The translations under genes were made by a program, and so were the position numbers. Shown here one piece after another: positions 1 through 55,250 of a stretch of 64,000 nucleotides of DNA; the first letter of the stretch is position 1; every line of letters begins with the position of its first letter. The DNA is from Squalus acanthias (lineage: Eukaryota), in NCBI GenBank assembly GCA_030390025.1, contig CM059431.1, positions 105,650,001-105,714,000 of the forward strand, in the 5' to 3' direction. The notes beneath the pieces are model-generated. The model saw nothing but the letters and a program-made list of their open reading frames with translations, did not search any database and was not told the origin of the DNA.

Positions 1-1742
1 GCAGACCAATTAACTACATACTTTGGTTCTGTCTTCACAAAGGAGGACAAAAATGAACTCCCAGAGATGTCGGGGAACATAGGCTCTAATGAGAGTGAGG
101 AACTGAATGAAATCAGTATTTGTAGGGAAATGCTGTTAGGGAAATTGATGGGATTGAAGACTGATAAATCCCCAGGGCCTGATAATCTACATCCTAGGGT
201 ACTTAAGGAAGTGGCCCTAGAAATAGTAGATGCATTGCTGGTCATCTTCCAAAATTCTATAGACTCTGGAACAGTTCCCATGGATTGGAGGGTAGCTAAT
301 GTAACCCCACTATTTAAAAAAGGTGGTAGAGAGAAAACAGGGAATTATAGACCGGTAAGCCGGACATCAGTAGTGGGGAAAATACTAGGGTCCATTATAA
401 AAGATGTAATTGCAGAGCACTTGGAAAACAGTGACAGGATCGGACAAAGTCAACATGGATTTACAAAAGGTAAATCATGCTTGACTAATCTACTGGAATT
501 TTTTGAGGATGTAACTGGTAGAATAGATAAGGGAGAACCAGTGGATGTGGTGTATTTGGACTTTCAGAAGGCTTTCGATAAGGTCTCGCATAAGAGATTA
601 ACGTGCAAAGTTAAAGCACATGGGATTGTGGGTAAGGTACTGACTTGGATAGAAAACGGTTTGGCAGACAGGAAGCAAAGAGTTGGAATAAACTGGTCTT
701 TTTCAGAGTGGCAGGCAGTGACTAGTGGGGTACCGCAGGGATCGGTGCTAGGACCCCAGTTATTCACAATATATATTAATGATCTAGATGAGGGATGTAG
801 ATGTAATATCTCTAAGTTTGCAGATGACACAAAGCTGGGTGGGCGTGTTGCTGTGAGGAGGATGCAGAGAAACTCCAATATGATTTGGACAGGTTGGGTG
901 ATTGGGCAGATGCATGGCAGATGCAGTATAATGTGGATAAATGCGAGGTTATCCACTTTGGTGGCAAAAACAGGAAGGCAGATTATTATCTGAACGGCAA
1001 TAGATTGGGAAAAGGGGAAGTGCAATGAGACCTGGGTGTCCTTGTGCACCAGTCGCTGAAGGTAAGCATGCAGGTGCAGCAGGCGGTTAAGAAGGCAAAT
1101 GGTATGTTGGCCTTCATAGCGAGAGGATTCGAGTACAGGAGCAAGCATGTCTTGCTGCAGTTGTACAGGGCCTTGGTGAGACCCCACCTTGACTATTGTG
1201 TGCAGTTTTGGTCGCCTTATCTGAGGAAGGATGTTCTTGCCATGGAGGGAGTGCAGCGAGGATTCACCAGACTGATACCTGAGATGGCAGGAATGACGTA
1301 TGGAGAGAGATTGGGTCGATTAGGCTAGAGTTTAGAAGAATGAGAGGGGATCTCATTGAAACTAATAAAATTCTAACAGGACTAGACAGACTTGATGCAG
1401 GAAGGCTGTTCCCGATGGCGGGGGAGTCCAGAACCAGGGGTCACAGTCTAAGGATAAGGGGTAAGCCATTTAGGACAGAGATGAGGAGGAGTTTCTTCAC
1501 CCAGAGAGTGGTGAACCTGTGGAATTCTCTACCACAGAAGGCAGTTGAGGCCAATTCATTAAATATATTCAAGAAGGAGTTAGATATATTTCTTAAGGCT
1601 AAGGGGATCAAGGGATATGGGGAGAAAGCAGGGACAGGGTACTGAATTTGGATGATCAGCCATGATCGCATTGAATGGCGGAGCAGGCTCGAGGGGCCAA
1701 ATGACCTACTCCTGCTCCTATCTTCTATGTTCTATGTTTCTA
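1..1742 (+). mobile_element. CR1 LINE, 3' part (RT domain, C-terminus, 3' UTR); 5' part outside window; frameshifted
   Basis: ORF 67..993 has [33 protein letters not shown]; 1044..1645 give the CR1 C-terminus (RPHLDYCVQFWSPY, RTRGH); 3' UTR stem GGAGCAGG...CCTGCTCC and CTATGTT-type tail. Confidence 0.97.
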
Positions 1743-6263: not shown

Positions 6264-6483
6264 CCCATGGAGAGGTTTAGGCAGGGAATTCCAGAGCTTA
6301 GGGCTTAGACAGCTGAAGGCACGGCCACCAATGGTGGAGCAAGAAAAATCGGGGATGCGCAAGGGGTCAGAGGTAAGCATTCAGAAATAAATGTTGGGCC
6401 ATGCCCCCACAAACAAAACAAACCAGGAGCACAAAAATCAGTCCACTGGGTGAAAGTCAATTCTTATTTCATTTTTATAGGGA

Positions 6484-6918
6484 ACGGTAGCCTAGATATC
6501 ATCTTAATAAGAACATAAGAAATAGGAGCAGGAATAGGCCACTTGGCCCCTCGAGCCTGCTCTTCCATTCAATAAGATCATGGCTGATCTTGGGCTCAAA
6601 GCCACTTCCCTGCCCACTCCCCATAATCCTTCACTCCCTTCATTTGCAAAAATCTGTCTATTAATGGACTACCAATCCCCAAGCTCATGAGTTCAAATCC
6701 CAAACGTGGGAATTTGCAAAACTGAGTTCAATAAAACTGAGGGCTGGCACCAGAAAAAAAAAGATGAAAAACCCAACGAGTTGATTAATGTGCCACCCCT
6801 ACCCAATCTGGCCTGCACATGTCTCCAGTCCCACAATCAATGGTTGACTTAGGGCAGCTAGGGATGGGCAATAAATGCAGCGTTCTCCGTGTCGCACACA
6901 TCCCACAAAGAAATAAAA
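6484..6918 (+). mobile_element. tRNA-headed SINE related to the 13732..21381 LINE, interrupted by a CR1 3' tail (about 6509..6660, minus)
   Basis: B box GAGTTCAAATCC; core TCTGGCCTGCACATGTCTCCAG..TGGTTGACT; tail TAGGGATGGGCAATAAATGC..CACATCCC. Confidence 0.75.
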
Positions 6919-7117
6919 ATCTAATAACAATCATTTATCTTTTTGTAATGTATACAGACTCTTACTTCACTGTAACCAACTGGTGATGATAATTCGAGAA
7001 GCTGAGTGATTGGACTTGAAGGGGGTGGTGGTTTGTGTCAGCTTTACCTCTGACTTCTGAGCGGTTCAAATCGCTCCCACTCCCTTGGTTCTAGATTTTG
7101 GACTTATTTGGGGGTTG

Positions 7118-12270: not shown

Positions 12271-13221
12271 CCACAGTACATGGGACGGTAAAGTGCCGAG
12301 TCTGGCAGTACATGTGGGTGGAAAATCACGGTCTCTGCAGGTCCAATTTGCCAATATCCACTCCGGGCAGGAGTGTACAAGTGGAAGGTTTACCCTATAG
12401 TTAATTTTGACTCGATAGTGTGCGGGAGATAGCCGATCGGCAGCCCAATTTGCATCTCTCCCGATTGTGGAAATAAAAATAACCTGTTTTGTAGCATCAC
12501 AGAGAGTCTAATTTACCCTCGCTGTCTTTTCTTGTCCCTGCTTTCTAATATGAAGTCCCCGCTTGCGCCTGCTCGCATATCACGTTCTCATCGCTAAATA
12601 TTGAATAAATGATCATACTCGTATGCACATCTCCCATCTCCAACCGTGACAAGTGATGGAAAAGTGTTGCTGATAAGATGTTACGAAGAGCAATTTTTCT
12701 TTAATTGGTGTTCCATATTCAATTACATTTTTTTTTAAATAACGTGGAAGTAATTTTCCTCTAAAATGATAACATTGGCCCAACTCTATCGACGTTGCAA
12801 AGGTCAGGTCACCTTCCTGACCCAGATCCACATTCATTCATACTCAATCGCTCATGTTGACAGGTTGCATAGCGTCAGAATTAAATGTTACTTGGCTAGG
12901 TTTTAAATACTATTCAAATCTAATCAAACAAAGGGATTATTGAAAGGGTTTTGAATATTTAACAGAACAAGAATTCTAAGGTTATGTTTTACATTTGCAG
13001 AAACAGTACAATGATGTAAATGTCACGCATGCAACTGCCTGAGGAACTGGTGTAGCATTTTAATTCACATTTATCACTGTGGCTCTCGGTACTTTTTTTT
13101 TAATATATACCAAGCAAACTCTTCCAGCTTTTTTCTGAAGCGAAACCATTACATTATTAAAATCACTGCAAAGTAAATGTTCTTTTTACTTTTTCATATA
13201 GGCAGAGTTATCTTTTATTTT

Positions 13222-13685
13222 GGTGGCTCAGTGGGTAGCACACTCACCTCTGAGTCAGGTCCCACTCTAGGGACTGGAGCACAAAAATCGAGGCTGACAC
13301 TCCAGGTGCAGTGCTGAGGGAGTGCTGCACTGTCTGAGGTGCCGTCTTTCGGATGAGATGTTAAACCAAGGCCCTGGCTGCTCTCTCAGGTGGACATAAA
13401 AGATCCCATGGCACTATTTTGAAGAAGAGCAGGGGGGGGGGGGGGGAGTTCTCCCCGGTGTCCTGGGGCAAATATGTATCCCTCAATCAACATCACAAAA
13501 AAAACCAGATGATCTGGTCATTATCACATTGCTGTTTCTGGGAGCTTGCTGTGCGCAAATTTCCTGCCACGTTTCCTACATTACAACAGTGACTACACTT
13601 CAAAAGTGCTTCACTGGCTGTAAAGCGCTTTGGGATGTCCTGAGGTTGTGAAAGGCGCTATAGAAATGCAAGTTTTTCTTTCTTT
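13222..13685 (+). mobile_element. DeuSINE-type SINE
   Basis: Collinear with 2829..3300; internal poly-G run. Confidence 0.88.
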
Positions 13686-14184
13686 TATCTTTTTTTAAGT
13701 TACGATTCAGATCACTAAGATACCAGTTTCAGTAGCATGGTGGTTATATTAACATACTAGTAATCCAGTAGGCCTGGACTAATGATCCAGAGACATGAGT
13801 TCAAATCCCACCATGGCAGCTGGGGAATTTAAATTCAGTTAATTAAATAAATCTGGAATAAAAAAAGCTAGTATCAGTAATGGTGACCATGAAACTATCG
13901 GATTGTCGTAAAAACACATCTGGTTCACTAATGTCCTTTAGGGAAGGAAATCTGCCGTCCTTACCTGGTCTGGTCTATATGTGACTCCAGACCCACAGCA
14001 ATGTGGTTGACTCTTAACTGCCCCTCTGAAATGGCCTAGCAAGCCACTCAGTTGTAACAAACCGCTACGAAACACAATAATAAGAATAAAACCGGACGGA
14101 CCACCCGGCATCGACCTTGGCACCGGCTACGGACACGGCAACGGCACACCCAGTCCAGTCCTCCTCACCAACATCTGGGAACTT

Positions 14185-15706
14185 GTGCCAAAATTGGGAG
14201 AGCTGTCCCACAGACTAGTCAAGCAACAGCCTAACATAGTCATACTCACAGAATCATACCTTTCAGCCAATGTCCCAAACTCCTCCATCACCATCCCTGG
14301 GTATGTCCTGTCCCACCGTGGGGAAGGAGTGGCCCTGGGAGTCCTCAACATGGACTCCGGACACCATGAAGTCTCATGGCTTCAGGTCAAGCATGGGCAA
14401 GGAAACCTCCTGCTGATTACCACCTACCGCCCTCCCTCAGCTGATGAATCAGTACTCCTGTATGTTGAACACCACTTGGAAGAAGCACTGAGAGTAGCAA
14501 GGGCACAGAATGTACTCTGGGTGGGGGACTTCAATGTCCATCACCAAGAGTGGCTCGGTAGCACCACTACTGACCGAGCTGGCCAAATCCTGAAGGATAT
14601 ACCTGCCAGTCTGAGCCTGCGACAGGTGGTGAGAGAAACAACACAAGGGAAAAACCTACTTGACCTCGTCATCACCAATCTACCTGTCGCAGATGCATCT
14701 GTCCATGACAGTATTGGTAGCAGTGACCACCGCACAGTCATTGTGGAGACGAAGTCCCATCTTCACACTGAGGATGCCCTCCATTGTGTTGTGTGGCACT
14801 ACCACCGTGCTAAATGGGATAGATTCAGAACAGATCTAGCAGCTCAAAATTGGGCATCCATGAGGCACTGTGGGCCATCAGCAGCAGCAGAATTGTATTC
14901 CACCACAATCTGTAACCTCATGGCTCAGCTTATCCCTCACTCTACCATTACCATCAAGCCAGGGGACCAACACTGGTTCAATAAGGAGTGTAGAAGAGCA
15001 TGCCAGGAGCAGCACCAGATGTACCTAAAAATGAGGTGCCAACCTGGGGAAGGTGCAACACAGGACTACATGCATGCTAAAAAGTGGAAGCAGCATGCTA
15101 TAGACAGGGCTAAGCGATCCCACAATCAATGGATCAGATCAAAGCTCTGCAGTCCTGCCACATCCAGTCACGAATGGTGGTGGACCATTAAAAAACTAAC
15201 TGGAGGAGGGGGCTCCATGAACATCCCTATCCTCAATGATGGTGGAGCCCATACGTGAGTGCAAAAGATGAGGCTGAAGCATTTGCAACTATCTCCAGAC
15301 AGAAGTGCCGAGTGGATGATTCATATCGGCCTCCTCCTGAGGTCCCTACTACCACAGAAGCCAGTCTTCAGTCAATTCGAATCACTCCACGTGATATCAA
15401 GCAACGGCCAAGCGCACTGGATACAGCAAAGTCTATGGGCCCCATAAACATCCTGGCTGTCGTGCGGAAGACTTGTGCTCCAGAACTAGCCACGCATCTA
15501 GCCAAGCTGTTCCAGTACAGCTTCAATAATAGCATCTACCCGACAATGTGGAAAATTGCCAGGGTATGTCCTGTCCACAAAAAGCAGGACAAATTCAACC
15601 CGGCCAATTACCGCCTTATCAGTCTACCCTCAATTATCAGCAAAGTGATGGAAGGTGTCTTCGACAGTGCTATCAAGTGGCACTTACTCACCAATAACCT
15701 GCTCAC
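14185..15706 (+). pseudogene. APE endonuclease and RT N-terminus of the tRNA-headed LINE (frameshift near 15255)
   Basis: ORFs 14185..15258 and 15255..15731. Confidence 0.88.
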
Positions 15707-16088
15707 AAGTGCAGCTCGGAACAGAGTGTAAAGCTGCGAGTTTGGTGAGTGAGGGAGTTCGGGGAGGGTGGTGTTCCTTTCTTTTTCTATCTTTGTCAGC
15801 TTCCAGGAGAGCAGGAGTTAAAAAGCTGCACAAGAGGGGACAGAGAACCAGCGGGAGTTCAGCTCTGTGACACCCCCCAACCGCATTTGGAGAGAAATAA
15901 AAGGTGACATCACAGGGAAAAGGGTAAGTGATTGGTTGGTGACTATTTTGCTCACTTCCCTTATATTTTAAAGCCCAGGAAATTTATTAGTAATTGTAAG
16001 GTTTCATTAGTACTAGTTTACTAGCAGTAATAAATCTTATTAGGTGTAGTAGGGTTAATAAAAATAAATTAATTAAGAATCAATAAAG

Positions 16089-17024
16089 GTGGCAGGGCAG
16101 GTGATGTGTTGCGACTGCAGTATGTGGGAGCTCCCGGACGCCAGTGTGATCCAGGACGAACACGTCTGCGGCTTGAGGAGCTTCGGCTCAGAGTTGATGA
16201 GCTGGAGGCCGAGCTGCGGACACTGCGATGCATCAGGGAGGGGGAAAGTTACCTGGACACTTTATTCCAGGAGGCAGTCACACCCCTTAGGATAGGGTCT
16301 TCAGATTTGGTCAGTGGTCAGGGACAGGAGGATGTGACTGCGAGTGAGGCAGGTATGGGGACCCAGGAGGTGGAGGAGCCTCAGCCTTTGCAATTGTCCA
16401 ACAGGTTTGAGGTTCTTGTGGCCTGTATGGACGAAAGTGGTGGCTGCAGGGTGGATGAGCAAACTGACCATGGCACCGAGGTACAGGAAGCCATTCAAGC
16501 GGGGGGAGTTAATAGGAATGTAGTGGTAATTGGGGACAGCATAGTCAGGGGGATAGATACAGTTCTCTGCGGCCAAGAGCGAGAGTCCAGACGGCTGTGT
16601 TGCCTGCCCGGTGCCAGGGTTTGGGACCTGCTCTGGGCTGGAGAGGAACTTGTAGTGGGAGGGGAAGGAGCCAGTGGTCGTGGTCCATGTAGGTACCAAC
16701 GACATAGGTAGAACTAGGAAAGAGTTTCTGCTAAGAGAGTATGAGCAGCTAGGGGCTAAATTAAAAAGCAGAACCTCAAGGGCAATAATGTCTGCATTAT
16801 TACCTGAGCCACGAGCAAATTGGCATAGGGTAAATAAAATTAGAGAGATGAATGCGTGGCTCAAAGACTGGTGCGGGAGAAATGGGTTTCAATTCCTGGG
16901 GCACTGGTACCGGTACTGGGGAAAGTGGGATCTGTATCGTTGGGACGGTCTTCACCTGAACCGTGCTGGGACCAGTGTTCTAGCGAGTCGTATAACTAGG
17001 GCGGTAGAGAGGGCTTTAAACTAA
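16089..17024 (+). pseudogene. CR1 ORF1 (Cys-rich/leucine zipper plus SGNH esterase), frameshifted
   Basis: CCDCSMWE, LEELRLRVDELEAEL, VVIGDSIVRG, CLPGA, HVGTND, DGLHLN. Confidence 0.93.
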
Positions 17025-17204
17025 ATATTGGGGGCATGGGATCAAATTTGGGAAGATGTGCTAATTCTAAGATTAGAGACAAGGCAATAGAGAAAGGTAT
17101 TAATATGGGAAATGATAAACAGACCGTGACAGGAAGGGATAGATAGTACAAATCTAAGAGTAAATCAACAGATAAGGCGAGAGGTTAAAAAAATAATAAA
17201 AGGA

Positions 17205-19995
17205 CAAAACTAAAGGCTCTGCATCTGAATGCACGTAGCATTCGAAACAAAACAGATGAACTGAAAGCGCAAATAGAAATAAATAAATATGATCTGATAG
17301 CCATTACAGAAACATGGCTGCAGGGTGACATAGATTGGGACCTGAATATTGAAGGGTACATGACATTTAGGAAGGACAGGAAGGTGGGAAAAGGTGGAGG
17401 GGTGGCTCTGTTATTTAATGATGGTATTAGCACAATAGAGAGGGATGACCTAAGTTCAGGAAACCAGGATATAGAAGCGGTTTGGGTAGAGATGAGAAAT
17501 AATAAAGGCAAGAAGTCACCTGTGGGAGTGGTGTACAGGCCCCCTAACAGTAACCACATGGTAGGATGGAGTATAAAGGAAGAAATAATGGGAGCTTGTC
17601 AGAAGGGTACGGCAATAATCACGGGGGAATTTTAATCTGCATATAGACTGGAAAAATCAGATGGGCAAAGGTAGCATAGATCAGGAGTTCATAGAATGTT
17701 TTTGGGATAGTTCCTTACAACAGCACGTTCTGGAGCCAACCAGAGAGCAGGCTATATTAGACCTGGTATTGTGCAACGAGATAGGATTAATTAATGACCT
17801 CATAGTGAAGGCGCCCCTAGGTAGCAGCGATCATAATATGATTGAATTTTACATTCAGTTTGAGAGAGAGAAGAGTGGGTCCAAGACTAGTATTTTAAAC
17901 TTAAATAAAAGCAATTATGAGGGTATGAAAGCAGAGCTAGCTAAAGTGAACTGGCAAATTAGGTTAAAGGATAGGTCAATAGAGTTTTAGTGGCAGGCAT
18001 TTAAGGGGATATTTCAAAATACACAGAATATATACATTCCAACAAGAAAGAAAAATTCCAAGGGGAGGACCCACCATCCGTGGTTAACTAAAAAAGTTAA
18101 AGATAGTATTAAACTTAAAGAAAAAGCATATAATTGTGCAAAGATGGGTGGCAGGTCAGAAGATTGGACAGAATATAAAAAACAGCAAAGAATGACTAAA
18201 AGATTAATAAGGAGAGAAAAATTAGAGTACGAGAGAAAGCTAGCTAGAAATATAAAAACAGATAGTAAGAGTTTCTATAGATATTTTAAAAAGGAAAGAG
18301 TTAACAAAGTGAGCGTTGGTCCTATAAAAAGTGAGTCTGGGGAATTAATAATGGAAAATAAGGAGATGGCAGTTGAATTGAACAGGTATTTTGCATCGGT
18401 CTTCACTATAGAGGATACAAGTAACATCCCAGAAATAGCTGTAAATCAGGAAATGGAAGGGAGGGAGGAACTCAAGAAAATTATAATCACCAGGGAAGTG
18501 GTACTGAGCAAATTGTTGGAGCTGCGGGCTGACAAGTCCTCGGGTCTTGATGGACTTCATCCTAGGGTCTTAAAAGAAGTGGCTAGTGAGATAGTTGATG
18601 CGTTGGTTTTAATTTTCCAAAATTCCCTAGATTCGGTGAAGGTTCCATTAGATTTGAAAATAGCGAATGTAACTCCTTTATTCAAAAAAGGAGGGAGACA
18701 GAAAGCAGGAAACTACAGGCCAGTTAGCTTAACATCTGTCATAGGGAAGATGTTAGAAGCTATTATTAAAGACGTTATAGCAGGGCACTTAGAAAAGTTC
18801 AAAGTAATCAGGCAGAGTCAACATGGTTTTGTGCAAGGGAAATCATGTTTAACCAATTTATTGGAGTTCTTTGAGGAAGTAACATGTGCTGTGGAACTGG
18901 TGGATGTACTGTACTTAGATTTCCAGAAGGCATTTGATAAGGTGCCACATCAAAGGTTATTGCGGAAAATAAAAGCTCATGGGGTAGGGGATAATATATT
19001 GGCATGGATAGAAGATTGGCTAGCTAACAGGAAACAGAGAGTAGGCATAAATGGGTCATTTTCTGATTGGCAGGATGTGATGAGTGGTGTGCCACAGGGA
19101 TCAGTGCTGGGGCCTCAACTTTTGACAATTTATATAAATGACTTGGATGAAGGGACTGAAGGTATGGTTGCTAAATTTGCTGATGACACAAAGATAGGTA
19201 GGAAAGTAAATTGTGAAGAGGACATAAGGAGGCTACAAAGGGATATAGATAGGTTAAGTGAGTGGGCAAAGATCTGGCAAATGGAGTATAATGTGGGAAA
19301 ATGTGAAGTTGTCCATTTTGTCAGGAAGAATAAAAAAGAAGCATATTATCTAAATGGTGAGAGATTGCAGAGCTCTGAGATGCAGAGGGATCTGGGTGTC
19401 CTAGTGCATGAATCGCAAAAGGTTACTATGCAGGTACAGCAACTAATTAGGAAAGCTAATAGAATGTTATCGTTTATTGCGAGGGGAATTGAATAAAAAA
19501 GTAGGGAGGTTATGCTTCAGTTATACAGGACATTGGTGAGACCACATCTGGAGTACTGTGTACAGTATTGGTCTCCTTATTTAAGGAAGGATGTAAATGC
19601 GTTGGAAGCAGTTCAGAGAAGGTTTACTAGACTAATACCTGGAATGGGCGGGTTGTCTTATGAGGAAAGGTTGGACAGGCTGGGCTTGTATCCGCTGGAG
19701 TTTAGAAGAGTAAGAGGTGACTTGATTGAAATATGTAAGATCCTGAGGGGTCTGGACAGGGTGGATGTGGAGAGGATGTTTCCTCTTGTGGGAGAATCTA
19801 GAACTAGGGGTCACTGTTTAAAAATAAGGGGTCACCCATTTAAGACAGAGATGAGGAGAAATTTTTTCTCAGAGGGTCGTGAGTCTTTGGAACTCTCTTC
19901 CTCAGAGGGCGGTGGAAGCAGAGTCTTTGAATATTTTTAAGGCAGAGGTAGATAGATTCTTGGTAAGCAAGGGGGTAAAAAGTTATCGGGGGTAG
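17205..19995 (+). pseudogene. CR1 ORF2 (APE endonuclease + reverse transcriptase), with stops and frameshifts
   Basis: ORFs 17360..17635, 17661..17990, 18144..19496 ([15 protein letters not shown]), 19512..19940. Confidence 0.95.
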
Positions 19996-20100
19996 GCGGG
20001 AATGTGGAGTAATCGGATCAGCCATGATCTTATTGAATGGCGGAGCAGGCTCGAAGGGCTGAGTGGCTTACTCCTGCTCCTAATTCGTATGTTCGTATGT

Positions 20101-21250
20101 TCACCGATGCTCAGGTTGGGTTCTGCCAGGACCACTCAGCTCCAGACCGCATTACAGCCTTGGTTCAAACATGGACAAAAGAACTGAATTCCAGAAGTGA
20201 GGTGAGACCGACTGCCCTTAACATCAAGGCAGCATTTGACCGAGTGTGGCATCAAGGAGCCCTAGTAAAATTGAAGTCAATGGAAATCAGGGGGAAAACT
20301 CTTCACTGGCTGTTGTTATAAGTAACACAAAGGAAGATGGTTGTGGTTGTTGGAGGCCAATCATCTCAGCCCCAGGAAATCACTGCAGGAGTTCCTCAGG
20401 GCAGTGTCCTCAACCCAACCATCTTCAGCTGCTTCATCAATGATTTTCCATCAATCATATTTTCAGAAGTGGGGGATAATTGATGATGATTGCACAATGT
20501 TCAGTTCCATTCACAAATCCTCAGATAATGAAGGAGTCCGTGACCTCATGCAGCAAGACCTGGACGACATTCAGGCTTGGGCTGATAAGTGGCAAGTAAC
20601 ATTCGCGCCACACAAGTGCCAGGCAATGACTATCTCCAACAAGCGAGAGTCTAACCACCGCCCCTTGACATTCAACGGCATTACCATCACTGAATCCCCC
20701 ACCATCAACATCCTGGGGGTCACCATTGACCAAAAATTTAACTGGACCAGCCACATAAATATTGTGGCTACAACAGCAGGTCAGAGACTGAGTATTCTAC
20801 ATCCAGTGTCTCATCTCCTGATTCCCCAAAGCCTTTCCACCATCTACAAGGCACAAGTCAGGAGTGTGATGGAATACTCTCCACTTGCCTGGATGAGTGC
20901 AGCTCCAACAATGCTCAAGAAGCTCGACACCATCCAGGACAAAACTACCCGCTTGCTAAGCACCCCATCGACCACCTTAAACATTCACCCCCTCCACCAC
21001 CGGCGCACCCTGTGTCTGCAGTGTGTACCATCTACAAGATGCACTGCAGCAACTCGCCAAAGCTTCGCCGATAGCACCTCCCAAACCCGTGACCTCTAAC
21101 ACTTAGAAGGACAAGGGCAGCAGGCGCATGGGAACACCATCACCTCCAAGTTCCCCTCCAAGTCACACACTATCCTGACTTGGAAGTATATCGCCCATCC
21201 TTCATCGTTGCTGGGTCAAAATCCTGGAACTCTCTCCCTAACAGCACTGT
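20101..21250 (+). pseudogene. RT C-terminal half of the tRNA-headed LINE
   Basis: ALNIKAAFDRVWHQG, IIDDDCT, INILGVTID, IYKAQVRSVMEY. Confidence 0.85.
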
Positions 21251-22350
21251 GGGAGTACCTTCACCACACGGACTGCAGCGGTTCAAGAGGGCGGCTCACC
21301 ACCACCTTCTCAAGGGTAATTAGGGATGGGCAATAAATGCTGGCCTTGCCAGCGACGCTCACATCCCAGGAATTAATTTTAAAAATATCAGTTTCACCAA
21401 AATGCATTTCTACTTTCCTGACATAGAAAAGTGAGAGTTTTGCAAACATCCTTTTAATGGAACTTTCACCATTAATTTCTTATCAGGCTCTACTAATTCT
21501 TCTGTCACGTCTGATAGACATGATTTATGTCAGCCTTTTAGTCCCCTTGTTAAACTGCTTTCTAGGACAGCGGTGTTTTCCATTTGTCTGCTTCTTTGAT
21601 TAAATTGGGCATCATTTCACCATTTGTGACTTTGTGTCGCTTACTGTTGACAGCCTTTGATAATGGGGACAGACCAGTGTCCTTGTGGAAGTGCTGAATC
21701 CATTGATTGGCTGGGTTGCATAATCCAGTCCCTTGGAATGAAGAGCGGAGTTAGCATTGTGCAGTTGAAAGAGAGCCAGCAAAAATCTTACTGAATGCAA
21801 GTAACAAACCACAACTGCTATCCACTGACAAAGTCACTTCTCGTCAAACAAAGAATAGTTAAGAAAATATGTTTGGGTTGCCATTCCTACTTATTCTGGA
21901 GACATTGATGAAATATATTGTAAGGAGGTGCTGACTTGACTCTTGGCAAAGGATCTGGCATGGAGATCTGCAATCTGAAGACATCTGATATGCCCTCCAG
22001 ATAAAATGAGTTACTCTTAGCAAGTGCATGGGCTGGCAACAATGTCTAATAAATGGACCAGTTCCAATAAAAGTGAACTCTTATTGAAAAGGTCAGAATG
22101 TTACTCAAGTGCCCTAATCAAAGAGCCTTTAATCCCCCTCTAAGCTCGTTGACTTTGTTGAAGAGACTTCAGAACATCATTGTTACTTTTAATAGTGATA
22201 AGCTACTGACACATGAGCCATTGACAGTGAATGGAATATATAACAACCTTTCCATCCTTTCTATCCTGAATCTTACTCCCAGTACTCAAGCTATTAAATA
22301 AAATTTACAGCACAGAAACAGACCCTTTTGGCCCAACTAGTCTATGCTGG

Positions 22351-28195: not shown

Positions 28196-28481
28196 TACAC
28201 ATCTTTCTTTGCATTCCATTCACACCTGTACACATTCAAGTCACAGCGTAGAATTGAAAGCTTTCGAAAGACTTGCATTGTGCACGAGCTTTACACATAG
28301 CCACTTGGCTGCAGGTGGCCCCTGTTCCATATGGCAAATCTCCATCTGGCTCTACATTGACTCTGAGCAGTTACCCTGGGTCATAGAATCATAGAAACAT
28401 AGAAGATAGGAGCAGGAGTAGGCCATTCGGCCCCTCGAGCCAGCTCCGCCATTCAATGCGATCATGGCTGATCATCCAAAT

Positions 28482-31330
28482 TCAGTACCCTGTCCCTGCT
28501 TTCTCCCCATATCCCTTGATCCCTTTAGTCTTAAGAAATATATCTAACTCCTTCTTGAATATATTTAATGAATTGGCCTCTACTGCCTTCTGTGGCAGAG
28601 AATTCCACAGGTTCACCACTCTCTGGGTGAAGAAATTCCTCCTCATTTCTATCCTAAATGGCTTACCCCTTATCCTTAGACTGTGACCCCTGGTTCTGGA
28701 CTCCCCGACCATCGGGAACATCCTTCCTGCATCTAGTTTGTCCTGTCCTGTCAGAATTTTATAAGTTTCAATGAGATCCCCTCTCATTCTTCTAAACTCC
28801 AGTGAGTATAAGCCCAATCGACCCAATCTCTCTTCATACGTCATTCCTGCCATCCCAGGTATCAGCCTTGTGAATCTTCGCTGAACTCCTTCCATGACAA
28901 GAACATCCTTCCTCAGATAAGGTGACCAAAACTGCACACAGTACTCAAGGTGTGGTCTCACCAAGGCCCTGTACAACTGCAGCAAGACATCCTTGTTCCT
29001 GTACTCAAACCCTCTTGCTATGAAGGCCAACATACCATTTGCCTTCTTAACCGCCTGCTGCACCTGCATGCTTACCTTCAGCGACTGGTGCACAAGGACA
29101 CCCAGGTCTCGTTGCACTTCCCCTTCTCCCAATCTATTGCCATTCAGATAATAGTCTGCCTTTCTATTTTTGACACCAAAGTAGATAACCTCGCATTTAT
29201 CCACGTTATATTGCATCTGCCACGCTTCTGCCCAATCACCCAACCTGTCCAAATCATCCTGGAGTTTCTTGGCATCCTCCTCGCAGCACACACACCCACC
29301 CAGCTTTGTGTCGTCTGCAAACTTGGAGATATTACATCTAGTTCCCTTGTCTAGATCATTAATATATATTGTGAATAGCTGGGGTCCAAGGACCGATCCC
29401 TGCGGTACCCCACTAGTCACTGCCTGCCACTCGAAAAAAGACCCGTTTATTCCAACTCTTTGCTTTCTGTCTGCCAATTAGTTCTCTAGCCAAGTCAATA
29501 CCTTGCCCCCATTCCCATGTGCCTTAACTTTACACGCTAATCTCTTATGCGGGACCTTATCAAAAGCCTTTTGGAAGTCCAAATACACCACATCCACTGG
29601 TTCTCCCTTATCTATTTTACCAGTTACATCCTCAAAAAATTCCAGTAGATTAGTCAAGCATGATTTACCTTTTGTAAATCCATGTTGACTTTGTCCGATC
29701 CTGTCACTGTTTTCCAAGTGCTCAGCTATTACATCTTTTATAATGGACTCTAGCATTTGCCCCACTACTGATGTCAGGCTCACCGGTCTGTAATTCCCCG
29801 TTTTCTCGCTACCACCCTTTTTGAACAGTGGGGTAACATTAGCTACCCTCCAATCCATGGGTACTGTTCCAGATTCCATCGAATGTTGGAAGATGATCAT
29901 CAATGCATCTGCTATTTCTAGGGCCACTTCCTGAAGTACCCTAGGATGTAGATTATCAGGCCTTGGGGATTTATCGGCCTTCAATCCCTTCAATTTCCCT
30001 AACACCATTTCCCTACAAATACTGATTTCTTTCAGTTTCTCCCTTTCATCAGACCCTATGTTCCCCAACATCTCTGGGAGGTTATTTGTGTCCTTTGTGA
30101 AGACAGAACCAAAGTATGTATATAATTGGCCTGACATTTTTTGTTCCCCATTATAAGTTCCCTGATTCTGACTGCAAGGGACCTATGCTTGATTTCACTA
30201 ATCTTTTTCTCTTCACATATCTATAAAAGCTTTTACAGTCAGTTTTTATGTTCCCTGCAAGATTACTCTCGTATTCTATTTTCCCCTTCTTAATTAATCC
30301 CTTTGTCCTCCTTTGTTGAATCTTAAACTGCTCCCAATCCTCAGGGTTACTGCTTTTTCTGGCCAATTTATATGCCCTCTCCTTGGATCTTATGCTATCC
30401 CTAATTTCCCTTGTTAGCCATGGTTGAGTCACCCTTTTTGTTTTATTCTTATGCCAAACTGGGATGAACAAATTCTGTAGTTTGTCCATGCGGTCTTTGA
30501 ATGTTTGCCATTGCCTATCCACCGTCAACCCTTTGAGTGACAGTCCCCAATCAATCCTACCCAACTCGCACCTCATACCATCATAGTTTCCTTTATTTAA
30601 ATTCAGGACCCTAGTCTCTGATTCAACTACTTCACTCTCCATCCTAATGAAGAATTCTATCATATTATGATCGCTCCGACCCAAGGGGCCTCGCACAACA
30701 AGATTGCTAATTAATCCTTTGTCATTGCATAATATCCAATCTAAGATGGCCTGATCTCTGGTTGGTTCCTCGACATATTGGTCCAGGAAACCATCCCGTA
30801 AACACTCCAGGAATTCCTCCTCCATAGTGTTGTTACTAATTTGGTTAGCCCAATCTATATGTAGATTAAAGTCACCCATGATGACTGCTGTGCCCTTATT
30901 GCACACTTCTCTAATTTCCCTTTTAATGCCATCCCCAACCTCCGCATTACTTTTTGGAGGTCTATATATCACTCCCACTAACGTTTTCTGCCCCTTGTTA
31001 TTTCTCAGTTCAACCCATACAGATTCCACATCATCAGAGCTAATATCCTTCCTTTCAATTGTGTGAATCCCTCTTTAACCAGCAATGCTACCCCACCTCC
31101 CTTTCCTTTTTGCCTATCTTTCCTGAATATTGAATACCCCTGGATGTTGAGTTCCCACCCTGGAGCCATGTTTCAGTAATCCCAATCAAATCATATTTGT
31201 TTACCTCTATTTGCGCAGCTAATTCATCCACCTTGTTCCGAATGCTCCTTGCATTAAGACACAAAGCCTTCAGGCTTGTTTTTTTAATGCTCTTAGACCT
31301 ATTAGAATTAGTATTTACTGTGGCCATGTT
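28482..31330 (-). pseudogene. CR1 ORF2 (APE + RT) with frameshifts and an in-frame stop at 29478..29480
   Basis: ORFs 31088..31447 (CLNARSI, ITETWL), 30151..31029, 29478..30137, 28482..29477 (KFADD). Confidence 0.95.
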
Positions 31331-31449
31331 TGATTTAAACCGTTGTTTTCTCTGACTGCCACTTTTGTTTTTCTCCTTCCTATCTTTTGCTTTTATCCTT
31401 GTTTCCCTTTCTCTGTCTCCCTGCTCAGGTTCCCAACCCCCTGCCATTT

Positions 31450-32399
31450 TAGTTTAAACCCTCCCCCAGAGCACTAGCAAACACTCCCCCTAGGACATTG
31501 GTCCCGGCCCTGCCCAGGTGTAGACCGTCCGGTTTGTACTGGTCCCACCTCCCCCAGAACCGGTTCCAATGCCCCAGGAATTTGAATCCCTCCCCCTTGC
31601 ACCATTCCTCTAGCCACGTATTCATTTAAAATATCCTTCTATTTCTACACTGACTAGCACGTGGCACTGGTAGCAATCCTGAGATTACTACCTTTGAGGT
31701 CTTATTTTTTAATTTACCTCCTAACTCCCTATATTCTGCTTTTAGGACCTCATCCCGTTTTTTACCTATATCGTTGGTACCTATATGCACCACGACAACT
31801 GGCTGTTCACCCTCCCCTTCCAAAATGCTCTGTAGCCACTCTGAGACATCCTTGACCCTTGCACCAGGGAGGCTACATACCATCCTGGAGTCTTGTTTGC
31901 GGCCGCAGAAAAGCCTATCTGTTCCCCTTACAATAGAATCCCATATCACTATAGCTCTCCCACTCTTTTTCCTCCCATCCTGTGCAGCAGAACTACCTAC
32001 GGTGCTAGGAAGTTGGCTGCTGCTGTCTTCCCCTGATAAGCCATCTCCCTCAACAATCTCCAAAGCAGTATATCTGTTTGAGAGGGGGATGGCCACAGGG
32101 GACCCCTGCACTACCTACCTGCGCCTATTACTCTGCCTGGTGGTCACCCATTCCCTTCCTGCCTGTACACCCTTTACCTGCGGTGTGACCAACTCCTTAA
32201 ACGTGCTATCCACGATGTCCTCAGCATCGCAAATGCTCCAGTATGCATCCCAGCGCAGCTCCAGCGCCGCAATGCGGTCTGTCAGTAGCTGCAGCTGGAT
32301 ACACCTCCCGCACACATGGTTGTCAGGGACACAGGAAGTGTCCCTGATTTCCCACATAGTGCAGGAAGAGCATGTCACAGCACCGAGCTGTCCTGCCAT
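31450..32399 (-). pseudogene. CR1 ORF1 (zinc finger/leucine zipper plus SGNH esterase) with premature stops
   Basis: CSSCTMWE..HVCGRC, WDSIVRG, HIGTND; in-frame TAG at 32115..32117. Confidence 0.93.
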
Positions 32400-35801: not shown

Positions 35802-35918
35802 AGAACAAGTAGTCACACAGGCTTTGTACCTTAAAACTGTAGATCTATTCACCATTGGTTCACTTGTATTGGGGGAGGATAAAACATAAGTACACGGAAG
35901 CCTTAAGAGGAAATCCAA
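35802..35918 (+). repeat. 117-bp direct copy of 37570..37686
   Basis: 114/117 identical by eye. Confidence 0.92.
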
Positions 35919-36300
35919 CATTCACTCCCTCCACCACCAGCGCACCATGGCTGCAGTGTGTACCATCTACAAGATGCACTGCAGCAACTCACCAAGGCTT
36001 CTTCGGCAGCACCTCCCAAACCCACGACCTCTTCCACCTAGAAGGACAAGGGCAGCAGGCGCATGGGAACACCTTTCCCTCCAAGTCACACACCATCCTG
36101 ACTTAGAAGTATATCGCCGATCCTTCATCGTCGCTGGGTCAAAATCCTGGAACTCCCTCCCTAACAGCACCGTGGGAGTACCCTCACCACACAGACTGCA
36201 GCGGTTCAAGAAGGCTGCTCACCACCACCTTCTCAAGGGCAATTAGGGATGGGCAATAAATGCTGGCCTTGCCAGTGACGCCCACATCCCATAAACAAAT
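35917..36300 (+). mobile_element. 5'-truncated copy of the tRNA-headed LINE family
   Basis: Collinear with 20981..21367, including the TAGGGATGGGCAATAAATGCTGGCC tail. Confidence 0.9.
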
Positions 36301-37715
36301 CTAAAAAAACAGATTATCTGGTCATATTCACATTGCTGTATGTGGGAGCTTGCTGTGTGCAAATTGGCTGCAGCATTTCTTACATTACAACAGTGACTAC
36401 ACTTCAAAGAGTACTTCATTGGCTGTAAAGCGCTTTGGAACGTCCTGCGGTCGTGAAAGGAGCTATATAAATGCAAGCCTTTCTTTCTTTTTTACTCTGA
36501 TGCTGTGCTCCAGGAGAGCTGTTCTATTACATGCACGGGAGGATTTTTTCCGACTGGACTGTAATTTTGCATGCTAGATTGCTTGTGGTTATTTTAACTG
36601 CAGGCTTTCGATTGAAATTTTACTTCACAGGAATTGCAGGTCCACGCGTTGTGAGTAATTTAGATTAGATTCAGTCGTTGGTACTCAAGAGATTAAAGGG
36701 AGCTATGGTCCAAAGAATATATGTTTTATCACAGTTATAAAATAAGCTACAATACAAGTAAAGATGTTAAAATACAAAGATTACACTCATAGCATTCTAA
36801 ATAAGACGTTGAGGTACAACCTGCTTAGCATCAACAGGGTTGCAAAGTGATCAAACTCAAGTTGCCTTACAGCTACTTGAGCATGTCCAGAAATGCTCTA
36901 ACATCTATATTTTAAGTCCAGCTTGTATACATTAATCATTCATTAGATTATGAGCCCGCTTTGGGCCCGTACGTCAATCAAACTCAATGTTTCTCAAGCT
37001 AAGCAGTTACCTGCCAACACCCGCACATCCCATAGTAAGCAGAAACAGGCAACTGACCATTTCCCATGTTGTGATCCCATGAAGAATAGGTAACCCCTGG
37101 AGACGTTGTGGGTTCATCAAGGACAACAACAACTTGTATTTATACAGTGCCTTTAACACAGTAAAACGTCTCAAACGTTCTGGGAGCCTTACACCTCATA
37201 CTTTTATACAACTTCCCACACCATGTAAAATTTTGTAACCTATCTTAATACAACATTGAGGAAAATACATGCAACACGTCTCTATCTTTAGTCAAAATGG
37301 CTGCCTTCAGCTGAGCACCTGATGCTGTTTATATATCAGTCCCGCCTCTGACCTCTAGATGGCTTTATGTGACTTTTTACAGATCCTGACAAGAAGGAAC
37401 AGAGTAATGGACCTTTTTGAATGTTTTCCAAGAGGCGTTTGTCAACAAGTCTACATGTCTAATCCATCTCTGTATTTCACACATTATGTATATATGCCAA
37501 CCTAGAAAACTAGCAAAAGCTGACACACACCCCAAAAGGTTGGCAACTGAAGAACGACCTTGACATGTGAGAACAAGTAGTCACACAGGCTTTGTACCTT
37601 AAAACTGTAGATATATTCACCATTGCTTCACTTGTATTGGGGGAGGATAAAACATAAGTACATGGAAGCCTTAAGAGGAAATCCAAGCATTGAAGGCATA
37701 AAATGTGTTCAATAT

Positions 37716-38240: not shown

Positions 38241-38867
38241 GTTGAAAGGACGTACAAACTAAACAAGGTTCTGCAGTCTTCAAACAAGGCCTGTTGACGC
38301 TTTTAACACTTTTCAATAGAAAGGCCTATTCTACAGCAAAGCCGAAGTAAAATTATTTTCTTACACCCATAGAAAGTGCAAATTGCCTTGAATATGAAAG
38401 AAGAAACACCTCAGCAAATTTAGAGACTCACATATTTATAAATACACTCATATTAATTCCTTACAAGAGAAGGCTAGCCAAGAAGATCAGTGAAAGCAAC
38501 AATCCAGGATTGAAATTACTAATGCCCAAAATAAAACCAAAAAGGTTGACAAATTTCACAATAACAGGCTTAAATTTAACCATAGAATTATCATTGGAAT
38601 TTTTTAAAATCTTCATTAAAACTTTTACTTTCAGGTCTCAAAATCTTGCGCTTCAAGTCAATAGTCTTTCCCCATAACAGTTAATGGGGGTTACCAACCA
38701 TATTTACAGTTTTTAGAGTGTCACTACATGCATTACCACATTTTTGGATTTTACAAGAGCAAGCTGTATCTCCTCATTATTTAAGAGAATTTTTTTTTTG
38801 ATTCATTCACGGGATGTGGGTGTAGCTGGCAAGGCCAGCATTTATTGCCCATCCCTAATTGCCCTCG

Positions 38868-44243: not shown

Positions 44244-44384
44244 AATGTATTGCAATTCTGCTATGAAGAAGAAATGGCAGAAGTTCTCTTCTTTCCACCA
44301 CCACTGCCCCCATGCCCAAAACATGGTATCAGAAGAATACAGTGATTATTTGTACTCTTTCTTTCTCAGGAGGTTGGCGGGGGG

Positions 44385-44712
44385 GAGTGGGGCTCAATGC
44401 TGAAGAGACCACATTTATTGCCCATCCTTAAGTTGTCCTCAGAGAGTGGTGGTCGACCACCTTCTTTGAACCGCTATCAATCAGAGGTCATTAAGAGTCA
44501 CCCACATGGTGTGGGACTAGAGTCGCATGCTAGCCAGACCAGGTTAGGATGGCAGGCTCCCGGCTCTGATGGACATCAGTGAACCAGTTGGGTTTTTACA
44601 ACAATCCAACAGGTTTCTGGTGCACAAATTACCAGAATTATTGAATTCAATTTCAAAATTATCCTCGGTAGGATTTCAATTCACGGCCACTGGGTGGCTT
44701 GTCCAGCACCAT
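44385..44712 (-). mobile_element. Diverged tRNA-headed SINE related to 6484..6918 and 13732..21381
   Basis: CATTTATTGCCCATCC tail, TTAAGAGTCA..CCAGACCAGGT core and degraded head, all reverse-complemented. Confidence 0.7.
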
Positions 44713-44974
44713 AATTTATTGAACATTATTTAATTTATTTAAATTTAAGAAGCAAAAAGAAAAAGATTTATGGAACCTTGCTCTGATGCTAATCTGCAAT
44801 TTGGAAAGTGATTAATCCTGATGCTGCCTAAAAAACAAATGTCACACATTTAGCACAATAAATGTCATGGCTCTAAGGGCTAAATTGCAGCAGTGATTAT
44901 AACAGTCTGCAAGTGAAACAGTGAAGAAAGCAAAGTCTAAAATAATGAACACATTAATGGATCGAGTAGAATGT

Positions 44975-49259: not shown

Positions 49260-51000
49260 TTCATAAAATTTCTACAGACTCATAAATCATGAGAGAAATC
49301 AGGATAGGGATAGGGTCACTAAGAGATACATACGATAACCTCACAAGAAATGACGGCAAAATGGCAGAAATATTAAATAATTACTTTGCCTCTGTATTTA
49401 CCAGGGAGACTAACATGGTGGACATGACATTAGAAGAAGAGAACAAAAAAGATAGAAAGATATTTAAGATAGAAAGGGGAGAGATAATTGATAATCTAAT
49501 CAAATTTAGAGATTATAAAACCCCTGGTTTAGAGGGATTGCATCCAGGCATATTAAAAGTTAGGGAAGAGATAGCAGAGGCACGTATACATATCTTTAAA
49601 ATTCATTAGAAAAGGGAATAGTGCCAGAGGACTGACCGACAGCTAATGTGATTCTTATATATAAAAAGGGAGATAGAACAAGTCCAGGGAACTATAGACC
49701 ATTTAGCTTAATGTTGGTGATAGGAAAGATAATGGAATCCTTACTCAAAGACGTAATAGAAAAACATCTATAAGCTGAAAATATAATGAAGAGTAGTCAG
49801 CATGGATTCCAAAAGGGAAGGTCATGCTTGACCAACCTTATTCAATTCTTTGCAGATAAGGGTAATGTAGTAGATGGAATATATTTGGATTTCCAAAAAG
49901 CCTTTGATAAGGTACCGCATAGTAGACTTATGACTAAGGTCATAACACATGGAGTCAGAGGACAAGTAGCAGAATGGATACAAGCTGGCTACAAAACAGA
50001 AAACAGAGAGTAGGGGGTTAAAGGTAGTTACTCAGATTAGCAAATGATGTGAAGTGCTGTTCCACAAGGATCTGTTTTGGGACCACTGTTGTTCACCATT
50101 TACATAAACGATTTGGACTCGGGAATCGGAGGTACAATTTCAAAATTTGCGGATGACACCAAGTTGTGGTGGGGGGGGGAGAAATACATTAACAAACTTG
50201 CAGAATGGGTGTGTAATTGGCAAATGAACTTCAACATAGACAAGTGTGAGGTAGTATATTTTGGAAGGAAGAATAACGAGGTCACATACTTCTTGGAAAA
50301 TAAGTGTCTAAGTGAAGTAGAGGAACAAAGGGATCTGGGGGTACTGATGCACAAATCACTAAAAATAGCGATGCAGGTTAATAAACCAATTTTTTAAAAA
50401 AGCACCAGAGTTCATTTCTAGAGGGATAGAATTGAAAAGCAAAAAAATTGTTAAACTTGTATAGAACCTTGGTTAGACCACATTAGAGAGTACTGTGCAC
50501 AGCTCTGGTCTCCATATTATAAAAAAAAGGATATAGAGACGGTGCAAAAGAGATTTACTAGAATGATACCAGAACTGAGAAGTTATACCTATCAGGAAAG
50601 ATTGAACAGGCTGGGGCTCTGTTCTCTAGAAAAGAGAAGACTACGGGGTGACCTGATAGATGTCTTCAAAATTATGAAAGGGTTTGATAGGGTAGACGTA
50701 GAGACGATGATTCCACTTGCGGGTGAGACAAGAACTAAGGGCCATAAATACAAGATAGTCACTATTAAATCCAATTTGGAATTCAGGTGAAACTTCTTTA
50801 CCCAGAGAGTGGTTAGAATGTGGAACCCGCTATCACAGGGAATAGCATAGATGCATTTAAGGGGAAGCTAGATAAGCACATGAGGGGAAAAAGGAATAGA
50901 AGGCTATGCTGATCGGGTTAGAAGAGGGGCAGGAAGAGGCTCGTGGAGAGTAAGCATTGAGTCGAATGGCCTGTTTCTGTGCTGTAAATACTGCATAATT
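49260..51000 (+). mobile_element. Older CR1 ORF2 3' half, many lesions
   Basis: [42 protein letters not shown] across broken ORFs. Confidence 0.92.
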
Positions 51001-54894: not shown

Positions 54895-55250
54895 TCCCGC
54901 GCTGCCTGGAGTCTCTTCGGATCGGCCATTTTGCTGGGTGTCTCCCACGATGCTGGTAGTCTCTTCTGATCCACCATTTTGCTGGGTGTCTCCCACGCTG
55001 CTGGTACTGTAGTCTCTTCTGATCCACCATTTTACTGTGTGTCTGCCACGCTGCTGGTACTGTAGTCTCTTCTGATCCACCATTTTGCTGTGTGTCTCCC
55101 ACGCTGCTGGTACTGTAGTCTCTTCTGATACACCATTTTACTGTGTGTCTGCCACGCTGCTGGTACTGTAGTCTCTTCTGATCCACCATTTTGCTGTGTG
55201 TCTGCCACGCTGCTGGTAGTCTCTTCCTAGCCACCATTGTTCTGTGTGTC
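54895..55250. repeat. Minisatellite inside the Tigger 5' region (47/53-bp units, about 7 copies)
   Basis: CCACGCTGCTGGTACTGTAGTCTCTTCTGATCCACCATTTT(A/G)CTGTGTGTCT(G/C). Confidence 0.92.

Follow-up and report, generated by a model that had tools for sequence, protein, structure and literature searches.

The 64,000-nucleotide stretch from the genome of Squalus acanthias, the spiny dogfish, analysed here, referred to as the window, contains at positions 13732..21381 a long interspersed element (LINE) which, on sequence comparison, is a decayed and CR1-interrupted copy of the Zenon LINE of sharks and rays. Its single open reading frame (ORF) is preceded by a tRNA-type head with A and B boxes, and head and ORF are mobile as one unit, because a target site duplication (TSD) encloses both and the same link is found in all seven published shark and ray Zenon consensuses and also in predicted proteins from other loci. 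Judging from the sequence we see an even case for the tRNA-type boxes of this single-ORF LINE acting as an internal promoter of RNA polymerase III (Pol III) for the whole 3.3-kb RNA. The parts of the element, which include an apurinic/apyrimidinic endonuclease (APE), a reverse transcriptase (RT) and untranslated regions (UTRs), are as follows.

13717..13731, no strand: left TSD, 15 bp, identical to 21382-21396 at 13 of 15 positions
13732..13810, plus strand: tRNA-type head with A and B boxes, recognised from the box patterns and, by eye, from its place at the opening of 7/7 elasmobranch Zenon consensuses
13811..14057, plus strand: conserved non-coding body (5' UTR), common to the short forms
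14157..15706, plus strand: 5' part of ORF2 with APE (about 14158-14740), linker and start of RT (PF14529 E=3e-14, PF03372 E=9e-6; tblastn to full-length relatives)
15707..20100, plus strand: nested full-length canonical CR1 (Lipase_GDSL_2 E=9e-11, RVT_1 E=2e-31)
20105..21323, plus strand: 3' part of ORF2 with RT and C-terminal region, terminal TAG at 21321-21323
21323..21381, plus strand: 3' UTR hairpin (about 21323-21367; fold z=-1.94) and decayed poly(A) tail
21382..21396, no strand: right TSD, pairing with the left one

Without the nested insert the element measures 3,252 nt and is a single-ORF LINE with an A-rich tail, which agrees with the length of about 3.25 kb given in an earlier note on this DNA, and recomputing the TSD returned the match of 15 bp around head and body that the note had reported. 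A match at 13 positions was reached by 6 of 5,000 random partners, among which a random draw may hit the real site. The window copy lacks 7 nt found at the start of the closest published consensus, and it is dead, with several stops and frameshifts: 14 codons are missing near 14320 and the frame shifts near 15251 in the 5' part of ORF2, and stops or frameshifts lie near 20320, 20450-20485, 21010 and 21097 in the 3' part. The 3' hairpin was equalled in stability by 6 of 200 shuffles and is followed by a decayed A-rich end at 21368-21381, where other copies run into poly(A) from 21366-21372 (in three of four sequencing runs, as listed). The nested CR1, of ~4.4 kb with an esterase ORF1 and an APE-RT ORF2, is flanked by a 4-bp duplication (15703-15706 and 20101-20104) and was inserted later than the Zenon copy; contigs from all four sequencing runs (11, 21, 20 and 3 contigs) join 15702 to 20101. 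The esterase ORF1 and the short tandem-repeat tail of a canonical, HER1-like CR1 are found only in this nested insert and not in the Zenon element.

The family itself is known from Stuart et al. 2026 (PMC13343379), whose Table S2 holds 10 Zenon consensuses, each compared here over its first 400 nt only. Seven of these are from elasmobranchs (SquAca_Zenon-1/2/3 and the Zenon-1 of CarCar, ScyCan, RhiTyp and HypSab), representing five species by their name codes: spiny dogfish with three, and great white shark, catshark, whale shark and stingray. They belong to the same family as the window element, being about 3.3 kb in length without ORF1 and with poly(A), and in the parts available for comparison the window copy differs from them structurally only by decay and by the nested CR1. 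Compared by eye, window 13732-14130 and SquAca_Zenon-1 are separated by 17 substitutions and 4 small indels in ~393 positions, an identity of about 95% over the first 400 nt; ten of the substitutions sit in the first 37 nt, and three of the four indels are window-specific letters in the contig comparison too. The head stands at the 5' start of all seven elasmobranch consensuses, in five species including a ray, and in none of the three from coelacanth and hagfish over the same 400 nt, the coelacanth start being of low confidence. In the six readable of the seven elasmobranch rows of Table S3 of the same paper, each family has between 59 and 2,313 near-full-length copies.

Predicted proteins from other loci extend this picture. 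Among the 150 protein matches listed of 357, at least five (P0026, P0031, P0033, P0043 and P0174) carry body sequence upstream of the APE and at least three more (P0034, P0040 and P0075) carry the linker; of these eight, five are whale-shark gene models and two originate from Logan contigs. Because gene models can be spliced, they show the order of the parts and not their exact spacing. One of the 32 contig pieces listed spans 13868-14091 with 29 differences. The nearest relative, P0185, is 40-47% identical to the RT of the Zenon copy and 26-29% to the three long CR1 copies of the window; for the 3' part of ORF2 its identity over the RT region is 43-47%. Scans of metagenome, prokaryote and viral contigs returned no related locus, and a word-based protein search with residues 1-130 gave no match. 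Two shark gene models, P0003 (storkhead-box-like, Heterodontus) and P0031, contain pieces of the Zenon LINE and are probably annotation artefacts of intronic copies; P0031 resembles the CAND1 N-terminus.

The earlier note had described a SINE-LINE chimera (SINE, short interspersed element) that moved as a unit, a description of which the unit stands and the chimera at this locus does not, its place being taken by an old family architecture. A one-off event here, in which a SINE inserted at, or was template-switched onto, a 5'-truncated LINE, would sit well with the SINE-type forms with the same head that lie in the window, but it is refuted by the order of head, linker and APE in 7/7 published consensuses and in proteins from other loci and another species, and we give it almost no credence. 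The junction of head and ORF is accordingly not unique to this locus, which the note had named as grounds for abandoning its proposal.

Within the head an A box-like 11-mer lies at 13733-13743, the position first reported for it, with one mismatch to the type-2 consensus; the B box is present at 13798-13808, one base later than first reported, with an exact core at 13799-13807. Paired A and B boxes of this pattern occur three times in the window, where 100 block shuffles give an expectation of 0.39 per 64 kb, and the other two pairs head a different SINE family. In the elasmobranch consensuses the A box is intact in all seven, starting at +6 to +11, and the B-box core in six, and the spacer between the boxes differs in length and sequence. 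No tRNA was found in the head by ARAGORN, a search of Rfam gave only a chance snoRNA match, and neither head nor body has a stable fold by shuffle comparison. AATAAA occurs at 13846 and 13857 on the plus strand, inside the first 150 nt of the element.

These features bear on a reading in which the Zenon RNA, like that of other CR1-group LINEs, is made by RNA polymerase II (Pol II) from a promoter within the body or beside it. The head would then be a passenger or helper that has been retained, its boxes being kept by TFIIIC binding or by exchange with the abundant SINE forms. LINEs are normally transcribed by Pol II according to the sections consulted of Kojima 2018 (PMC5786205), and the poly(A) end of the element, with AATAAA at 21332, as well as a deficit of TTTT that is not significant in the window copy, would fit the same polymerase. 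Against it, the 5' end lies 6-11 nt before the A box in 7/7 consensuses, which is the start geometry of type-2 Pol III promoters; both boxes are conserved while the spacer drifts; AATAAA is found in the first 150 nt of the consensus in four of the five species, which sits poorly with an mRNA made by Pol II; and TTT is depleted. We regard transcription by Pol II as a serious possibility that nevertheless remains doubtful.

The T-run depletion is suggestive only as a sign of terminator avoidance by Pol III. Runs of at least three T number 9 on the sense strand, where mononucleotide shuffles give 25.1 (0 of 1,000 as low) and dinucleotide shuffles 16.1 (P=0.018), and three CR1 controls have no TTT deficit in the mono- and dinucleotide shuffle test. 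In the coding blocks there are 6 TTT runs against 14.8 under synonymous shuffling (P=0.001). The signal comes from one copy and has, for that reason, little power.

Several observations weigh against transcription by Pol III. The actual Pol III terminator is TTTT, and RNAs made by Pol III are normally uncapped and poorly translated. In the window copy TTTT is not significantly low, with 2 internal runs (near 20444 and 20460) against 5.3 (P=0.08) or 2.9 (P=0.41) expected, nor is it under synonymous shuffling (1 against 2.4, P=0.26), and one of two CR1 controls was TTT-low too under synonymous shuffling (13 against 18.2, P=0.018). The fold of the head is no better than that of its shuffles (z=0.15 and 0.38), and the HypSab consensus lacks one base of the B box. 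In addition the family appears mostly dead, intact ORF2 numbering 0-3 per family in six readable rows (PMC13343379).

How ORF2 would be translated depends on the region between body and APE, in which three further features were distinguished.

14031..14039, plus strand: start-stop mini-ORF of two codons where the body ends, present in 6/7 consensuses
14058..14156, plus strand: basic (Arg/Lys/His-rich) leader, probably the true N-terminal part of ORF2, from P0033 and the HypSab consensus
14086..14088, plus strand: ATA in place of a conserved AUG that opens a short overlapping frame, from family comparison

APE homology starts near 14158, about 360 nt past the B box and about 425 nt from the 5' end, which leaves no room for an ORF1, in keeping with the distance of ~370 nt between the boxes and APE on which the earlier note had based the same claim. 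The note had also treated the absence of ORF1 as unusual, and in this it was not supported, as this is the normal state of Zenon LINEs, for which absence of ORF1 together with a poly(A) tail is stated in the available text of Stuart et al. (PMC13343379). Its report of an APE frame without in-frame ATG before the motifs holds for the codons themselves, the open frame 14011-15258 having its first ATG at 14350 and a GTG at 14185; however, 14 nt are deleted in the window copy near 14156 and the open frame upstream of about 14156 is a product of this decay. The same missing 14 nt put the basic leader out of frame with the APE in the window copy. P0033, with 14 nt more than the window, runs in the basic frame (window 14130-14156) straight into the APE, and the stingray (HypSab) consensus has a layout of leader and APE like that of P0033 as far as it is given. 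Basic leaders which begin with Met are found in the invertebrate relatives P0001, P0036, P0039 and P0100.

An AUG in the consensus, which the note had considered fatal to its proposal, does exist: six of seven consensuses, as well as P0033, P0034 and P0040, have AUG at the position of window 14086, where the window itself has ATA. Where this could be checked, it is out of frame with the APE, namely in the one consensus readable that far, which has the APE in the -1 frame to this AUG, and, by parsimony, in three of four whale-shark gene models. The fourth of these models, P0026, has an AUG frame running straight into the APE, which speaks against a frame lacking any in-frame AUG. The AUG of the mini-ORF at 14031 is in the APE frame, by eye, in 3/5 species and out of it in the other two. 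As the AUG of 14031 is in the APE frame in only those three species, read-through of the stop codon from it was ruled out as a general way of starting. A -1 frameshift from the AUG of 14086 was likewise discarded, the one consensus readable that far having no canonical slippery heptamer by eye, and none of the three linker frames has a 2A-type motif. (The distant relative P0007 starts with a 2A-like motif.) With no conserved in-frame AUG remaining, a non-AUG start in the basic frame is favoured, the AUG frame then being an upstream ORF; that the APE frame has no conserved in-frame AUG and is initiated at a non-AUG codon in the basic leader frame is, on these comparisons, plausible.

Shorter relatives of the element in the window share its head, body or tail.

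6480..6920, plus strand: SINE-type short form comprising the head, a shorter body and the tail, interrupted by a CR1 3' fragment at about 6507-6660
44383..44737, minus strand: SINE-type short form in which head and body are followed by about 90 nt from the LINE's 3' end, from window comparison
35917..36308, plus strand: 5'-truncated copy of the Zenon LINE, 88% identity

Window copies that match the body lie at 44737-44481 (194/249) and about 6665-6850. In the short form at 6480-6920 the CR1 3' fragment is inserted between the A and B boxes, and the first 12 nt are those with which SquAca_Zenon-1 starts. Among 15 joints listed, at least eight link 14023-14122 to 21237-21321 with differing breakpoints, which agrees with the headed LINE having repeatedly undergone internal deletion, and some of these joints retain linker or coding sequence. 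Compared with a tRNA-derived SINE (SINE2), the 3.25-kb element has the A and B boxes at its 5' end but is not short and non-coding, which is true only of 6480-6920 and 44383-44737. A lone 73-nt Zenon LINE tail with poly(A) lies at 38793-38865 on the minus strand (86% identity).

A reading of the body as a Deu domain was rejected, because the Deu sequence of the Kojima supplement matches instead, by eye, a separate SINE at 13220-13690 and there is no blast match between the body or head and that SINE, and a Meta domain was rejected because the body has, by eye, no likeness to the bivalve Meta sequences. The Deu-domain SINE at 13220-13690 (plus strand, SacSINE1 type) is a separate insertion ~30 nt upstream of the left TSD and is matched at no fewer than 9 other places in the window.

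Taken together we tentatively propose, as what the sequences allow and at somewhat less than even confidence, that the shark and ray Zenon is an autonomous coding element which switched to Pol III before these lineages diverged, with an uncapped 3.3-kb RNA, few T-run terminators, no in-frame AUG, SINEs arising by internal deletion and one promoter shared between LINE and SINE. An ancestral Zenon would have gained a SINE-type head before the split of sharks and rays, probably via template switching. Pol III would start some 6-11 nt ahead of the A box, reading on through the T-run-poor sense strand. Translation of the APE-RT protein would begin in the basic leader frame with no in-frame AUG, and the conserved AUG that is out of frame would dampen it as an upstream ORF. 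This protein would bind the 3' hairpin and poly(A) and insert the element by target-primed reverse transcription, which is established for LINEs, and internal deletions keeping head and tail would give SINEs directly.

A mixed use of the two polymerases, in which the Pol III RNA is copied, the protein comes from capped Pol II read-through of copies lying in host genes and mobilisation is partly in trans, would reconcile the Pol III geometry with the need for translation, and 39% of the CR1-Zenon-like LINEs of the whale shark are intronic according to the portion consulted of bioRxiv 10.1101/443036. Supply in trans would weaken selection for the link of ORF2 to the head, yet this link is retained in five species; we consider such mixed use unlikely. 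LINEs and SINEs are divided into coding elements made by Pol II and non-coding elements made by Pol III. A coding LINE that still has Pol III boxes at its very 5' end in five species of sharks and rays would let nature itself test whether a long Pol III RNA without a cap is translated enough to sustain retrotransposition. The birth of SINEs by deletion alone, without capture of a head, would extend the bipartite model beyond RTE and Vingi.

The closest systems in the literature share some of these features, as far as the consulted parts of each source describe them. The lepidopteran Zenon and Persaeus (PMC6740152) belong to the same clade, with poly(A) and with short forms consisting of both ends of the LINE, 5' and 3'; Persaeus, a short element made by internal deletion, shows neither tRNA homology nor a Pol III promoter, whereas the shared 5' end of the shark short forms is a tRNA-type head. 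The bipartite SINEs Bov-tA/Bov-B and SINE2-1_ACar/Vingi-2_ACar (Kojima 2018, PMC5786205) combine a tRNA head with 5' and 3' parts of a LINE, as do the shark short forms. In those SINEs, however, the head was added after the deletion and the autonomous LINE is headless, whereas in the shark the coding LINE itself is headed, and they are found there only for RTE and Vingi, whereas the shark case belongs to the CR1 group. RTE-1_DAn and elements related to it (Kojima 2018, PMC5786205) are LINEs with tRNA-like sequence, as here, but of the RTE clade. SacSINE1 and other DeuSINEs of cartilaginous fish (PMC5499810) likewise have a tRNA-derived A/B head in sharks; SacSINE1, linked to L2-2_CM by Luchetti 2017, has a Deu domain and an L2-2_CM tail, from which the Zenon body and tail differ. 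In bivalves Zenons drive SINEs, and in the whale shark they are abundant (PMC4824008, PMC2746220, PMC3747384, PMC11481361, PMC10468316, bioRxiv 10.1101/443036), and the consulted portions of these six sources contain no headed LINE.

From this comparison the family and its missing ORF1 are already published, and the head, the frame layout at the start of ORF2 and the related short forms appear not to have been described. According to the text consulted of PMC13343379, no elasmobranch Zenon had previously received a formal annotation in a repeat repository. The terms 'tRNA', 'polymerase III' and 'start codon' have 0 occurrences in the portion of its main text consulted, so that the head is present in its data and, to that extent, undescribed there. 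In the literature searched we came upon no account of a coding Zenon with a Pol III head, Repbase, Dfam, SINEBase and most subscription papers lying outside that search.

The remaining observations concern other repeats of the window. CR1 sequence is nested both in the element at 13732..21381 and in the short form at 6480-6920, and CR1 activity was therefore later than these Zenon-family insertions. Further long CR1 copies at 28390-31934 (minus strand), 93-1738 (plus strand) and 49641-50744 (plus strand) are 64-70% identical to the nested CR1. ORF1 of the nested CR1 ends with a slippery-type heptamer directly 5' of its stop (window 17015-17024, plus strand), after which the -1 frame continues into the ORF2 frame, with two stops in the window copy. 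A minisatellite with a 53-bp unit occupies 54906-55218, with 6 copies at 91% matches.

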